Source: Eledone cirrhosa
Lineage: Eukaryota
Direction: 5' to 3'
NCBI GenBank assembly: GCA_964016885.1
Contig: OZ024740.1
Span: forward strand, 77,810,001 to 77,874,000
Length of the DNA stretch: 64,000 nt
Shown: positions 8,377 through 35,624 of the stretch, piece after piece
How positions within the stretch are numbered: position 1 is the stretch's first letter
Layout: every line of letters begins with the position of its first letter
The notes under the pieces: model-generated
The model's input: only the letters and a program-made list of their open reading frames with translations
Told to the model about the DNA's origin: nothing
Database searches by the model: none
Translations under genes and position numbers: made by a program

Positions 8377-8584
8377 TAGTTATCTAATAAACAACATAAT
8401 ATAATTATTTCATTTACCACCGGTTTCTTGAAAGCAAACTAAATTTGCCTTCAATCATCGGAATGAAAAAGTCCTGGTGTCACCAGGATTTTTTCATTCT
8501 GATGATTGAAGGCAAATTTTGTTTGCTTTCAAGAAACCAGTGGTAAATGAAATAATTATATTATGTTGTTTATTACATAACTAT
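8377..8584. repeat. Fold-back palindrome (~103-bp arms, 1-nt loop at 8480) carrying family C HHRs
   Basis: CCTGGTG-T-CACCAGG centre; arms are reverse complements with few mismatches; the left end abuts (TA)n. Confidence 0.9.
8492..8552 (+). ncRNA. Type I hammerhead ribozyme motif (family C)
   Basis: Stem I TTTCATT/AATGAAA; CTGATGA at 8499; 11-bp stem II TTGAAGGCAAA/TTTGCTTTCAA; GAAA-CC-AGT-GG-TA (GUA site). The mirror copy has CCGATGA. Confidence 0.85.
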
Positions 8585-9559
8585 TAAGCTTTGTAACCTA
8601 CATAGAGCACTCTTTTTTCCTGGACTTTTCCGACGGAATTACTTCATTCACACACACATATATATATATGAAGGGAGTCAGGATCCAGACCGCGTCATCA
8701 AGCGGTTTGGGCTTGCTGAACACAACCGCTTGGCGTGGCGGTCGGAATTAAACATATCTCTATACCCACTGTGCATCTTCCCATACATTCAGTAATCCCA
8801 TGATTATTGATCTTCCCGGTATCAGCACCGCAGACTCTATACACCCCCACCCCCACACACACATGCGCGCGCGCACACACACACACATACATATATATGT
8901 ATATATGTATATATATATATATATATATATATATATATATATACATATATATATATATATATATATATATATATATATATTGGTGGAACACTGGAAGGTA
9001 ATATCCGTAGTGGTAGAGCACTCAGTCCATGGGACGAGTTAGGTAGAAGTGGTTACACAAGTGTAACCACTTATATATATATATATATATATATATATAT
9101 ATATATATATATATATATATATATATATATATATATATATATATATATATATATATATATATATATATATATATTCGTGATAAAATACAAGCTGTTCGAT
9201 AGTCTACCAGAGATCGTGAGAATTGGAAAGCATCTGTGAGAGATAGAAGGAAGCAGACAAGACAATGCTGGGGCCATACCCTTAATATTTTATATTGATT
9301 AGGTATTTTCCATTGAAGGACAGCCTAGCTGCTTAGTAAATGTGTACTTGTATAAGTTGAAGTGTATATTTTAGAGGTTCTTGTGTATCATGTTGAAATG
9401 GTGAATGCTGAAGTTTCTATCACAATGGACCCGCCTGTTGGATTGGCGAGTTGTCCAGAAGGTCGAACGTGAAAACAGATACTTCCTGAAAGGAGGAGAC
9501 GATGTGAATATCTTGGTGTTAGAATTGAGATATTCATTGGAGCATTTTAATCATTGACG

Positions 9560-9970
9560 ATTTAGGCTCATTTTAGAGGTCTACATCTCCTGGATCCGTT
9601 ACTGTAAGCCGTGGGCTTTCGAGAATAGTTCATATTAGTCATAATATTGATTCCTACCTTTCAAGGTCTATACGTGATTCGCTAAAGCTGCAGAGGTTCT
9701 CATAACATGTTTGTGGAGTGAAACCTATGGGTTGTATTTAGGTTTAAGAATTTCTTCAACCAATCCAGTTTTCTGTTTATTGTTTGGTTTGCAGTGTCCG
9801 AGGAGACTACGGCCTCGTGTACCACCAGTTTGATATTGAATTCCTAGTCTAATGGGAGTTTATCCTACTTTCTTAATAAATAACCTGCATTTTCAGGAGA
9901 TTTGGTTTAGTTGTTATAAAGGATTTCATGTTAGGAACATCTACTGAAGAATTTTTCTATATCTTCTTTA
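9560..9970 (-). pseudogene. Decayed Penelope-like element GIY-YIG endonuclease fragment
   Basis: Manual minus-strand translation across stops and frameshifts gives VVHEAVVSSD...RTSAALANHV*TLKGRNQYYD...*TILE.PTAYSNGSRRC, resembling the PLE endonuclease pattern ST.LS.H.W.LK...W.I..KA..Y.NGSK.C. Confidence 0.6.
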
Positions 9971-9974
9971 TCAT

Positions 9975-10430
9975 TCTTCGCCCACTTATTCCTGGGATGG
10001 TCGCAGGGGCAGAGTCCTCAAGCATGGCTGTCCTCAGCGTGTCCTGACAGAAGAAACTTTCAACAATTGATCTGACTAGATCCCCAAGCAAAACCAATCG
10101 AGCTCATGGATGTTAGCCAACCATCTTACTAGGGTCTACTCCTGAGTCTCCTGCCAGTTGGTTTTGCCCGTAAAATCTGTTCAGTGATTCTTTCCTTAGA
10201 TATTCTGACCATATGTCCGTAGTATCGGAGCTATGATTTCTCAATTCGGAGGAGTAGCAGTTCTACTTAGAGCGACTCTCTGATCTTCGAACTATGCACT
10301 TTACCGAATAACGTTACTCCAAAGACCCTTCGTAGGAACCACATTTCGGCCGCTTGTATTCGCGGTCGTACTCTTTCGGTCATTAATTATGACTGTAGAT
10401 AAGGGTTGGCACGAATACTGAATTGAAATA
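9975..10430 (-). mobile_element. RTE-clade LINE 3' fragment
   Basis: Homologous to 45390-45820, whose translation is RTE-like. Confidence 0.75.
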
Positions 10431-10834
10431 TATCGGTGTAGCGTTATAGAATATCTTGTAGAACAGAGAATATCTTACCTCTGTCAGTTTTAATGTTTAA
10501 TGGGGGATAGGAGCAAGAACTAGATGGCTTTTCTAGGCCTGTTCTTGTATCTTTTGAATAGATATAACAGGACTGTGGAAATATTGTCTTTGGAGCCCCT
10601 GTTTAGATCGGTCACATAATTGTATGAAACCTCCTTAATAAATCTAAACTTAGAAAGAAGCGGTTAGAGGGGGAGGAGGAAATTTAAGAGGGAGTAGTTT
10701 CGAGGGAAGAGGTGATGGTGAAAGGGGAAATGGGGGAAAGAAGGACCTATTACCGTCCCATGGATAAAATGCGATGTATTATTTTATCCACCATGTGGGG
10801 TAGGTGGATTTGAAGAATGACTAGTGCATTTATG

Positions 10835-10992
10835 GAGCATTTATTCTGACTCTTTGCGTTCTGAGTTCAAATCCCGCCAAGATCAACTTTGTTTTTCATT
10901 CTTCATTGGTCAGTAAAATCAAAATATTAGGATCGACATAATTGAGGTTCCCACCAAACTGCTGATCTTGTGCCTAAATTAGAAACTGTTAT
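10835..10992 (+). mobile_element. tRNA-derived SINE (Nin/Deu-domain-like), degenerate
   Basis: CTGAGTTCAAATCCCGCC...AACTTTG...TTTCAT motif shared with the 36.2-37.0 kb copies. Confidence 0.65.
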
Positions 10993-11811
10993 TTTATCCA
11001 AATGTTCCACTAAAATTTGTTATTTTCAACTGTTTACTTTCTATTTACTGCTATCTTTTATATCTGAGTACGCAGCAGAATCTAACTCTCTTCGCTATTG
11101 TTATTTCTAGTTTTACTTGTTTAGTTCCTCGTCTTTCCTGGCCATCTGCTGACTCACTTAATTTTCGGATTCGAAGAGTTTTTCCAAATTTTCTGTTATA
11201 ATAAAGTTCTATCTTTTGTCTCTGATTGGCTACAAAACCTTTACTGAGATTGTTATAGAAATTATTTTTTTTTACATATTTTAAAATAAGTTGAACTAAA
11301 ATGATTTAATATATATTTTTAACAAGCAGCCCCCACCCCTAGATTTTTTTATACGCTGAATTTTTCAAGTTGGTTATGCTCACCCGCGATGTTATATGTG
11401 TGTGTGTGTGTGAGCGTGCGTGTGTGTCTGTGTGTGTGTGCGTGTATGTGTGTGTATATATCAAGATTAAGCTAGTATTAAACTAGTCAGACCATTATTC
11501 AACTGAATATTCAATATTTGGGATAGGAGAAGCCATTTCTGTATCAAATAAATTAAATAATGATGTTTACACTCTACTAATGTATTAAGTAATTTTTTAA
11601 TAGTGGTTACCCCAGATTTAAATCGGGATCTCTCTATCTATCTCTATCTCTTTCTCTCTATATATAATAAGTTGACGGGACTAGCATGGGTTTCACTGCT
11701 AGGACGGTTCCATCTCAGCGTATTCAATAACTAATGTTATGTAAATTCCCAGAGTAGACACATAGTTATTCGCTTCAATACAACACACGTAAATGGGTAC
11801 CTTCATTCTAT

Positions 11812-11924
11812 ACCCGTACTCTAGTTTCGACCACACTTATTGCAGAAATAGAGTGCACAGCATCCACTGTCTGCATTTATTATGCAATAATGCACAACCG
11901 ACGCATGTGGCTTCATCAGCAGGT
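11812..11924 (-). ncRNA. Type I hammerhead ribozyme motif with ~70-nt loop II (family D)
   Basis: Minus strand: ACCTG-CTGATGA-AGCCACA...TGTGGTC-GAAA-CT-AG-AG-TA-CGGGT; stems I, II and III all pair; GUA site. Confidence 0.7.
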
Positions 11925-33948: not shown

Positions 33949-34160
33949 AATAAACGAAGCCAAATTTTAAACATTTGACTTATTTATTTTATTTTATTTT
34001 ACATTACTCCGGAGTAACCAAACCAACCTGCGCACTTCGTCGAGTGCTCCAATCTGCATACTAGGTGTTGGTATACAACCAACATATACTCAAAATTTAT
34101 ATATATATACATATATATATATATAGGAAGAAATTAAAAGATGGTTAAGAAAGTTCCATG

Positions 34161-34231
34161 TATTTTATTATGCGCATTTCAAAAACAAATATCAACCTGC
34201 GACGATATTTGCGTTCTCATCAGATAAAATA
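34161..34231 (-). ncRNA. Type I HHR (family A)
   Basis: Minus strand: TATTTTAT-CTGATGA-GAACGCAAATATC...GATATTTGTTTTT-GAAA-T-GCGC-ATA-ATAAAATA. Confidence 0.85.
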
Positions 34232-34355
34232 GGGAAACATGATATGAAGCCTTAAAAAAACACTTGGTATTTGCATTGCTTTATTGGGCTACAATAAAAC
34301 TCACCTCCTACACACACACACACACACACACACACATATATATATATATATATAT

Positions 34356-34552
34356 AACAAAGGAAATGTGGTAAGGAACCAGATGGACCATAACGTACCA
34401 GAGTACTCAATACTTAGAGTAGTAGAGTGGGAAATAGGAAAAAGTATGACCCCGACGGCAGCGCTCAAGCCGTTTCGACGGCTATTTCTGGAGTCCAGAA
34501 ATAGCCGTCAAAACGGCTTGAGCTCTGCCGTCGGGGTCATACTTTTTCCTAT
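34356..34552. mobile_element. Family X fold-back element
   Basis: Minus copy 34356-34491 joined head-to-head to plus partial copy 34492-34552; (TA)n on both sides. Confidence 0.85.
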
Positions 34553-34686
34553 ATATATATATATATATATATAAATGAAAAGTATAGAAATTATTATGAG
34601 CAAGAAGCACACAGTATTTCATTATATATATATATATATATATATGAAAATAAAGCAAATAAGCCTTCAATACATCAAAAGTCTTT

Positions 34687-34732
34687 ATTAGCCAACAATG
34701 TTTCGTCCTATTAAGGACTCATCAGGGCAATC
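34687..34732 (-). ncRNA. Type I HHR (family N), left inverted arm
   Basis: Reverse complement of 35419-35464; arms 34643-34765 / 35386-35508. Confidence 0.88.
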
Positions 34733-35418
34733 AAAACCACAAGAAGCACTATCGGCCAATACAAGAATTGATTTGTTAACTTACATGCCATTATATATTA
34801 TATATTATTATATTATTATTATAGTGTTATTGTGACATCTATATTGTTTGTGTAAATTAACCGGAGATTACCTATTATATTATATTATATATTATATAAT
34901 TATATAGTTTATTATATATTATATTATTGAATATTATATGTGTTACTTTTAATCATTTCATTACTTCATGTTATACTGTATATTAGATATACGTATTATT
35001 TTTATTTTTATTCCTATTATGCTTATTTATATTTAAACTCTTAATAAGGTTTAATTTGTGCTGTTAATAATGGAAATGTGTATTTATGTATGTGTGCGTA
35101 CGTGTGCGTATATATATACATATGTATACTGTGCCTTTTAATTTTAATTTTAATTTTAATATTGTTACAAGTATATTATATTATATTATATTGTATTATA
35201 TATAGTACTATAATTCCCGCTCTATATAACCACCTTTGTTTAGCTCTAGTTTTTTTGCTTTGGACTATATTTGTAATATGGTTCAAAATGTTATCCACCT
35301 CCTTAGTGATTTTTATTATATATTTTTACCCATAATCTTCCAATACTTTAGTGTATGTACACTCCATATTCTTCGGAGTTTTCGGCTTGTATTGGCCGAT
35401 AGTGCTTCTTGTGGTTTT

Positions 35419-35464
35419 GATTGCCCTGATGAGTCCTTAATAGGACGAAACATTGTTGGCTAAT
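35419..35464 (+). ncRNA. Canonical minimal type I HHR (family N)
   Basis: ATTGCC-CTGATGA(35426)-GTCC-TTAATA-GGAC-GAAA-C-ATT-G-TT-GGCTAAT; GUU site, cleavage expected after 35457; AATAAA at 35462. Confidence 0.9.
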
Positions 35465-35624
35465 AAAGACTTTTGATGTATTGAAGGGTTCTTTGCTTTA
35501 TTTTCATAATTCTTCGGCTCTGTTTAATTACATTGAGCTATACCTTTTACTGTCATTTCTATAATACGAAGAGGGTGTTTAACTCCAACACGCTCCAGTA
35601 TTTTAATCCTTATATATATATATA

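Follow-up and report, generated by a model that had tools for sequence, protein, structure and literature searches.

Two-armed, likely Penelope-like insertions in (TA)n arrays of Eledone cirrhosa, and the probable priming of both target strands on one RNA

How do fragments of a retroelement come to lie in (TA)n microsatellites as two inverted halves, joined head-to-head with their 3' ends facing the array? This question is raised by a 64,000-nucleotide stretch of Eledone cirrhosa DNA (assembly GCA_964016885.1, contig OZ024740.1, positions 77,810,001 to 77,874,000 of the forward strand), hereafter called the window, in which positions are counted from the first letter. It is animal DNA with abundant (TA)n and (CA)n and remnants of long interspersed nuclear elements (LINEs); some of its short interspersed nuclear element-like repeats are presumably of octopus type. 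An initial annotation had pointed to palindromes with very short loops, had ascribed them to Penelope-like elements (PLEs), and had offered as their origin either snap-back of nascent cDNA or template switching by the reverse transcriptase (RT), or else priming from both nicked strands of the target. Our analysis indicates that the fragments are likely short, 5'-truncated PLE insertions in (TA)n with two halves pointing outward, and that their main route of integration was probably twin priming, in which both target strands prime RT at two sites on one RNA.

All eight palindromes named in that annotation were recovered by a palindrome scan and by self-alignment, with the loop sizes it had given. 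They comprise a 1-nt loop at 8480 (arms 8376-8479 and 8481-8584), a 2-nt loop at 9059-9060 with 12-bp arms, a 3-nt loop with 21-bp arms that lies at 19452-19454 rather than at 19451-19453, a 5-nt loop at 28749-28753 with 288-bp arms, and a 10-nt loop at 21379-21388 with 158-bp arms. The longer spacers, noted at 5471, 17676 and 34766, correspond to 16 nt at 5472-5487, to 300 nt between arms 17552-17679 and 17980-18107, and to 620 nt between arms 34643-34765 and 35386-35508. Between 5 and 36 kb the scan returned 17 rows with a score of at least 11 and 12 rows with a score of at least 20 (three loci being listed twice), as compared with 0-1 and 0 rows, respectively, in six Markov controls. A census based on self-alignment, a list of the segments between microsatellites and family alignments counted 21 two-armed inserts bounded by (TA)n or (CA)n. 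Absent from the initial annotation were the loci at 6618, 17279, 21146, 34493 and 30063-31482, as well as the entire class of inserts with non-overlapping arms. Many single-arm (solo) copies are also present in the window. Three candidates that could not be verified (7429-7464, with a 7-nt second arm, 6834-6938 and 20713-20748) were left out of the count. The segment 63102-63137, considered as a tail arm, was dropped, its score being reached by 384-1906 of 2000 shuffles. Neighbours standing tail-to-tail across one (TA)n run (7362 and 7429; 6504 and 6552) are read as separate insertions into one array.

The polarity of the arms is given by hammerhead ribozyme (HHR) cores, which were called by motif and stem checks. 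The core motif was matched 18 times, as compared with 2.4 ± 1.6 times in 100 shuffles. Most cores have a stem I and a tiny palindromic stem III, and a stem I of 5-8 bp together with the cleavage triplet was found in 12 of the 19 motifs checked (one row of which stood at wrong coordinates). Judged from the letters, the putative ribozymes contain the parts of the minimal type I form (CUGANGA, stem II, GAAA, tiny palindromic stem III, stem I), and this architecture agrees with that described for PLE ribozymes in PMC4209133. Among the 150 of 307 Rfam matches listed there was no hammerhead family; these were sub-threshold microRNA and snoRNA matches only, caused by hairpins and microsatellites. A (TA)n or (CA)n run was present 45-200 nt downstream of all 19 hand-listed cores (16 loci, related families), a range picked after the data had been seen, whereas upstream a run was found at 6/19 (40-205 nt) and 10/19 (0-205 nt), and the fraction for random positions was 0.30 (40-205 nt) and 0.40 (0-205 nt). 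The run unit was (TA)5; (TA)4, which gave 15/19, was unsuitable because the family A HHR itself contains TATATATA.

Eleven loci could be polarised by an HHR, directly or through homology, and all 11 are head-to-head, with the truncated 5' ends in the centre and the 3' ends outward at (TA)n. The polarity and the PLE-type origin proposed in the initial annotation were both supported, although its placing of the HHR in the arms holds for both arms only at 8480, 21384 and 35075; the loci at 5480, 9060 and 17829 are polarised through homology or a spacer HHR, and those at 19453 and 28751 have none. An HHR was not detected in family B or at loci G, H, I and N, and these four loci are unpolarised. 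The motif found in the tails is nearly self-complementary and therefore served to fix position; only in family B was the strand assigned from it alone.

Two fixed 3' end sites recur, a "short" one and another lying further downstream, and at 17 of the 21 loci each of them is used by one arm, which leaves a tail of 58-102 nt (where measurable) on one side. For families A, B, C and E both end sites are defined by at least two copies, and here a short end is combined with a tailed one at 12 of 12 loci. An independent 50:50 choice of ends would give this result with a probability of 0.5^12, and equal-ended loci would appear as symmetric palindromes, as did only locus H and one element resembling a miniature inverted-repeat transposable element (MITE). 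The six two-armed copies of family B each have one short and one tailed end, with junctions that vary from copy to copy. Solo copies stop at the same short site (17109, 18602, 6453 and 25659; the copy at 20843 a few nucleotides beyond), and the short site therefore behaves as a priming site and not just as a stopping point. The short ends lie on TA-like bases of the element in 9 of the 9 listed. By eye, arms are often 5'-truncated at or inside the HHR core (5470, 6890, 17192, 18730, 19277, 19420, 23399, 25659, 34622 and 63135), as if the structure stalled RT, and the 5' ends of family B arms frequently lie between -57 and -65 relative to the short site.

We considered the possibility that the inserts were formed by snap-back or self-priming, i.e., that a cDNA or an antisense template folds, copies itself and rejoins (TA)n at TA microhomology. 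This is the published interpretation, self-priming on an antisense template having been proposed for the inverted structures of PLEs (PMC3846280). A folded-back single cDNA copies only what it holds, and therefore the tailed arm must reach furthest 5'. Yet, at five of the 13 loci that can be judged, the arms do not overlap, and there is an inversion without a palindrome. At 63431-63571 (family B), a tail-only arm on the minus strand (+2 to +78 from the short site) abuts a short-ended plus-strand arm (-65 to -1) with 3 nt of microhomology. At 34126-34309 (family C), an HHR arm on the minus strand (-136 to -1 from the short site) is accompanied by a tail-only plus-strand arm (+50 to +91). The other three, with differing junctions, belong to family A: 6970-7362 (inverted tail arm 6970-7052 on the minus strand, plus-strand HHR arm running to the short site, HHR 7262-7302), 19609-20239 (minus-strand HHR arm, 19669-19708; tail-like plus-strand arm at about 20185-20239; about 300 nt unassigned in between) and 25383-25613 (inverted tail arm on the minus strand, HHR arm on the plus strand, 25517-25553). 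The inverted end in family A is homologous to the family C tail, the score of the arm at 6970 being reached by 0 of 2000 shuffles and, for the wrong strand, by 873 of 2000.

At two further judgeable loci the spacer is on the untailed arm. The family C locus at 5341-5526 has a tailed minus-strand arm (5341-5471) and a short-ended plus-strand arm (5472-5526) that carries the 16-nt spacer; the family K locus at 17476-18103 has a tailed minus-strand arm (76-nt tail) and a short-ended plus-strand arm reaching further 5' into the 300-nt spacer, where an HHR core motif is found at 17857-17903 on the plus strand. One cDNA snapping back cannot yield these 7 of 13 loci without a later one-sided deletion, the non-overlap included. 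A separate deletion would be needed at each, always taking only the tailed arm's copy, and the one at 63510 would have to halt exactly at the short site; furthermore, solo copies ending at that site are not predicted. In favour of snap-back, the spacer is on the tailed arm at 5 of the 13 loci, mini-hairpin fillers occur at 17276-17282 and 21379-21384, an 11-13-bp arm at 18716 stops at a non-standard site, and the junction at 19453 falls on a natural 3-bp inverted repeat. On balance we regard snap-back as unlikely in general, though it may apply where an arm is very short (18716-18726) or a loop filler is templated. Of the mechanisms offered in the initial annotation, priming of both target strands is therefore the one that we favour, snap-back alone failing at seven loci.

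Junction microhomology amounts to 0-3 nt by eye, and to about 6 of 7 nt at 25450. Three junctions hold templated fillers, one of them an exact 29-nt copy from the partner arm (7053-7081, within 6970-7362, identical to 7228-7256); two loops hold reverse-complement snippets of the adjoining arm, one of these being the 7-nt filler of the family B locus at 17217-17402, which is the reverse complement of its adjoining left arm. Templated fillers are typical of polymerase-theta end joining. Loops of 1-2 nt would be trivial for end joining and awkward for a priming hairpin. Two inverted fragments per element, some of them non-overlapping and joined at microhomology, are what characterises twin priming, and they were observed here. 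Within a family B locus the two arms usually resemble each other more closely than they resemble arms elsewhere (e.g., 21/21 positions, against no more than 18/21 between loci), which points to one template. Dual priming, in which the two target ends are extended on separate RNA molecules, would explain overlapping arms without strand displacement and has been proposed for L1 (PMC2837659), but it gives no reason for the short-plus-tail combination at 12 of 12 loci, and the two arms carry common locus-private variants; we hold it to be improbable.

For twin priming we infer the following course. The endonuclease (EN) would cut both strands of the self-complementary (TA)n. The 3' end of one strand would start synthesis at the downstream (tail) site, that of its partner at the upstream, TA-containing site, and both cDNAs would stop early. 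If the tail-primed copy ended at or before the upstream primer, an inversion without overlap would result; if it ran past that primer, the product would be a palindrome, with any loop down to 1 nt. Microhomology-mediated end joining would then unite the two single-stranded 3' ends, in some cases adding templated fillers, and a solo arm would be left where only one end was extended. Established in vitro for a Penelope/Poseidon protein (PMC11167929) are the cutting of both target strands and their extension, with two internal start sites on the RNA that define the "tail"; the protein is predicted to be a dimer.

The tails also contain a near-palindrome, GAG-NN-CT, lying 21-31 nt beyond the short 3' end in families B, C, D, E and F, which have diverged in other respects. 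It is present in 9 of the 14 tails listed, with a similar motif at 40 nt in one more and none in four, and its tail positions include 5396-5403, 6720-6727, 8606-8613, 9017-9024, 19500-19507 and 21575-21582; its 8-letter form has 22 matches as compared with 7.3 expected. It lies between the two priming sites and is a candidate site for protein binding. Tentatively, and with less confidence than in twin priming as such, we suggest that twin priming could be the default integration route of these PLEs, a dimer holding one RNA, probably at GAG-NN-CT in these five families, and priming both strands at the two flanking sites. If this were true, the one-sided tail, the inverted pseudo-long terminal repeat and the non-overlapping inversions would be one phenomenon. 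The origin of the inverted structures is stated as open in PMC8557442. The one-short-plus-one-tail rule and the non-overlapping inversions provide a countable genomic test of self-priming versus two-ended priming, and they tie the in vitro two-strand, two-site result of PMC11167929 to real insertions. Such palindromes are liable to be misannotated as MITEs or microRNA hairpins (there are many sub-threshold microRNA matches among the Rfam matches listed) or to be dismissed as artefacts.

Several points weigh against twin priming or narrow its basis. All the evidence comes from one 64-kb window, and target-site duplications are unreadable in (TA)n flanks. Eight of the 21 loci could not be judged for snap-back; among the 13 that could, five (6618, 17279, 19453, 21146 and 9060) fit it equally well and one is marginal (34493, by 2 nt). 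Palindromes are prone to one-sided central deletions, which could make snap-back products discordant or non-overlapping. In family A, the tail is assigned by homology across families, and the tail arms other than that at 6970 are significant only against the latter. The six family B loci lack an HHR, and their polarity comes from the tail motif that they have in common with HHR families. Loci L, N, I and H depart from the clean short-plus-tail rule. Finally, no PLE protein was found, there being no relevant Pfam match in the 72 of 164 listed open frames that were searched.

Another possibility was that the palindromes are fold-back artefacts of sequencing or assembly. Locus H, at 29179-30054, has arms of about 410 bp on either side of a central (TA)n, and its ends are equal. 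Most differences between these arms are indels (16 gap events, as against 7 substitutions); the locus is possibly an unpolished read or assembly artefact, or a template switch at (TA)n. The arms of loci G and I are 99-100% identical, and divergence alone cannot clear them. On the other hand, 8 of 11 aligned arm pairs (at least 12 bp) differ by 0-7 substitutions without gaps; as to the others, locus N has 9 substitutions and 2 gaps, and L is mis-bounded. The ends lie at family-specific sites, a single polarity is common to 11 of 11 polarised loci, and the non-overlapping loci are not fold-backs. The internal evidence of the sequence thus argues against a general artefact, which seems very improbable. 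Five public read runs from two studies hold part of 27830-35610 (shares 0.13-0.49) and provide no evidence either way. Hardly any more credible is replication template switching at the self-complementary (TA)n, which would give inverted duplications without RT: it suits locus H (TA-X-TA-X'-TA, equal ends), but the centre lies inside element sequence and not in (TA)n at 20 of 21 loci, and neither tails nor HHR polarity are predicted. TA-targeting MITEs with terminal inverted repeats can practically be dismissed, since, despite short TA-flanked inverted repeats and a symmetric 80-bp MITE-like element within (TA)n at 33184-33263, the inserts have asymmetric ends, copy-specific centres (these vary among all six two-armed copies of family B, which already contradicts a fixed symmetric repeat), solo arms and HHR cores.

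The geometry itself is already known for PLEs (PMC3846280 and PMC8557442): one arm is inverted and 5'-truncated, the junction is palindromic, a single arm has a tail and the target is TA. The initial annotation had rightly given the inverted 5'-truncated repeat as established. PMC3846280 describes head-to-head palindromic junctions, and PMC8557442 an inverted 5'-truncated copy, a one-sided tail of 30-40 bp and a (TA)n bias. Like these EN+ PLEs, the present fragments have 5'-truncated copies with an inverted, 5'-truncated copy at the 5' end, head-to-head and with a palindromic junction, as well as a tail restricted to one arm, partial tandems, insertion into microsatellites and an HHR near the 3' end. 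They differ in that the one-sided extension, seen at 17 of 21 loci, is 58-102 nt rather than 30-40 bp, in having no open reading frame (ORF), and in the non-overlapping arms (five loci), which we did not find in the accessible published descriptions, where the explanation is self-priming. What the window adds is a variant in which the tails are longer, a locus has as a rule one end of each kind, and some inversions lack overlap. Literature searches, which did not extend to older subscription papers, turned up neither an application of twin priming to PLEs nor a description of arms that fail to overlap. Penelope families of an octopus genome are treated in PMC13282606, whose accessible part does not discuss the inverted structure.

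Within PLEs, HHRs plus (TA)n are typical of the Hydra clade (PMC8557442), which is reported in molluscs and other aquatic invertebrates, and apparently canonical HHRs and (TA)n insertion were also found here. That clade is defined by RT/EN protein motifs (RWK, DKT, CxCX5C; no CCHH), whereas the present likeness is by HHR and (TA)n; the HHR-less loci B, G and I could come from other clades. An intact PLE RT/EN ORF was not found in the window, and the fragments are short non-coding ends. PLE membership appears to be supported by RNA motif and architecture, and not by protein. Four weak Pfam rows and one DctQ row, below curated cut-offs, were taken as chance, and the family B motif gave 0 matches in metagenome contigs.

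The Anolis Poseidon protein PAc studied in vitro (PMC11167929) resembles the system proposed here in that both strands of an AT-rich target are cut and extended and in that two internal RT starts lie downstream of the HHR; its start sites are not target-homologous, whereas here the upstream site has TA microhomology and each arm uses one of the two sites. In its accessible text, that paper does not deal with inverted products. Twin priming by L1 (PMC2837659) similarly involves two primers on one RNA, inversion, frequent internal deletion and microhomology joining, and its intermediates, as well as end self-annealing, are documented in bioRxiv 10.1101/2024.12.14.628481. L1 employs its poly(A) tail for the first primer and an internal position that varies for the second, whereas here both sites are family-fixed and close, and overlap is common. 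Non-LTR retrozymes, linked to PLEs in bioRxiv 10.64898/2026.07.22.740005, are likewise non-coding PLE-related sequences with a type I HHR, but they form tandem HHR arrays, in contrast with the dispersed truncated ends found here; among these, an HHR was not detected in the only clear tandem, locus I.

The other two-armed loci are as follows. In family B, the locus at 6552-6772 has a short minus-strand arm, a tailed plus-strand arm (80-nt tail) and a 19-nt spacer; that at 19434-19552 has the 3-nt loop; that at 21018-21195 has a tailed minus-strand and a short plus-strand arm; and that at 34357-34549 has a 1-nt loop at 34493. The family D locus at 8379-8648, around the 1-nt loop at 8480, has HHRs at 8424-8461 (minus) and 8499-8536 (plus) and a 64-nt tail on the right. 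The family E locus at 8981-9071 consists of a tailed minus-strand arm and a 12-bp short plus-strand arm around the 2-nt loop, its polarity being taken from the HHR-bearing copy 18602-18700. Family F, at 21221-21641, has a 10-nt loop of templated snippets, an HHR in both arms and a 95-nt tail on the right, and family J, at 34643-35610, HHRs at 34701-34725 (minus) and 35426-35450 (plus), the 620-nt spacer and a 102-nt tail on the right. In family L, at 18716-18860, an inverted arm of about 11-13 bp ends in the HHR core, and the tailed arm is on the plus strand (degenerate core 18733-18755). Locus N, at 21679-22455, is unpolarised and atypical, with 77-bp inverted arms, a 148-nt spacer and about 480 nt extra on the right.

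Locus G (28455-29105) has arms of 288-294 bp, a 5-nt loop and a 58-nt extension on the right, and locus I (30063-31482) a 375-bp inverted arm plus a partial tandem with a 591-nt period, 3 nt of junction microhomology and essentially identical arms; no HHR was found in either. Matching inverted ends, TAGGGTGGCCC, enclose about 7.2 kb at 25954-33152, which is probably, to judge by these ends, a DNA transposon holding loci G, H and I together with a palindromic element at 27093-27823. A partial tandem with a 327-nt period lies between (TA)n runs at 23399-23754 and starts at a CTGATGA half-core. An element with a 91-nt internal tandem (5527-6433) is inserted between the right arm of the locus at 5480 and its (TA)n; by its end motifs it is presumably Helitron-like. 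A decayed, frameshifted frame at 9175-9985 on the minus strand ends at the long (TA)n 9072-9174, outside the fold-backs; it may resemble a PLE endonuclease C-terminus, its part 9488-9985 (minus) looking endonuclease-like, and protein searches gave no match. A nearly intact LINE occupies 51979-57043 on the minus strand; it has one frame that is ORF1-like (434 aa) and two for endonuclease/RT (653 and 499 aa), and decayed copies of it are found at 48217-48648 and 57120-61117.

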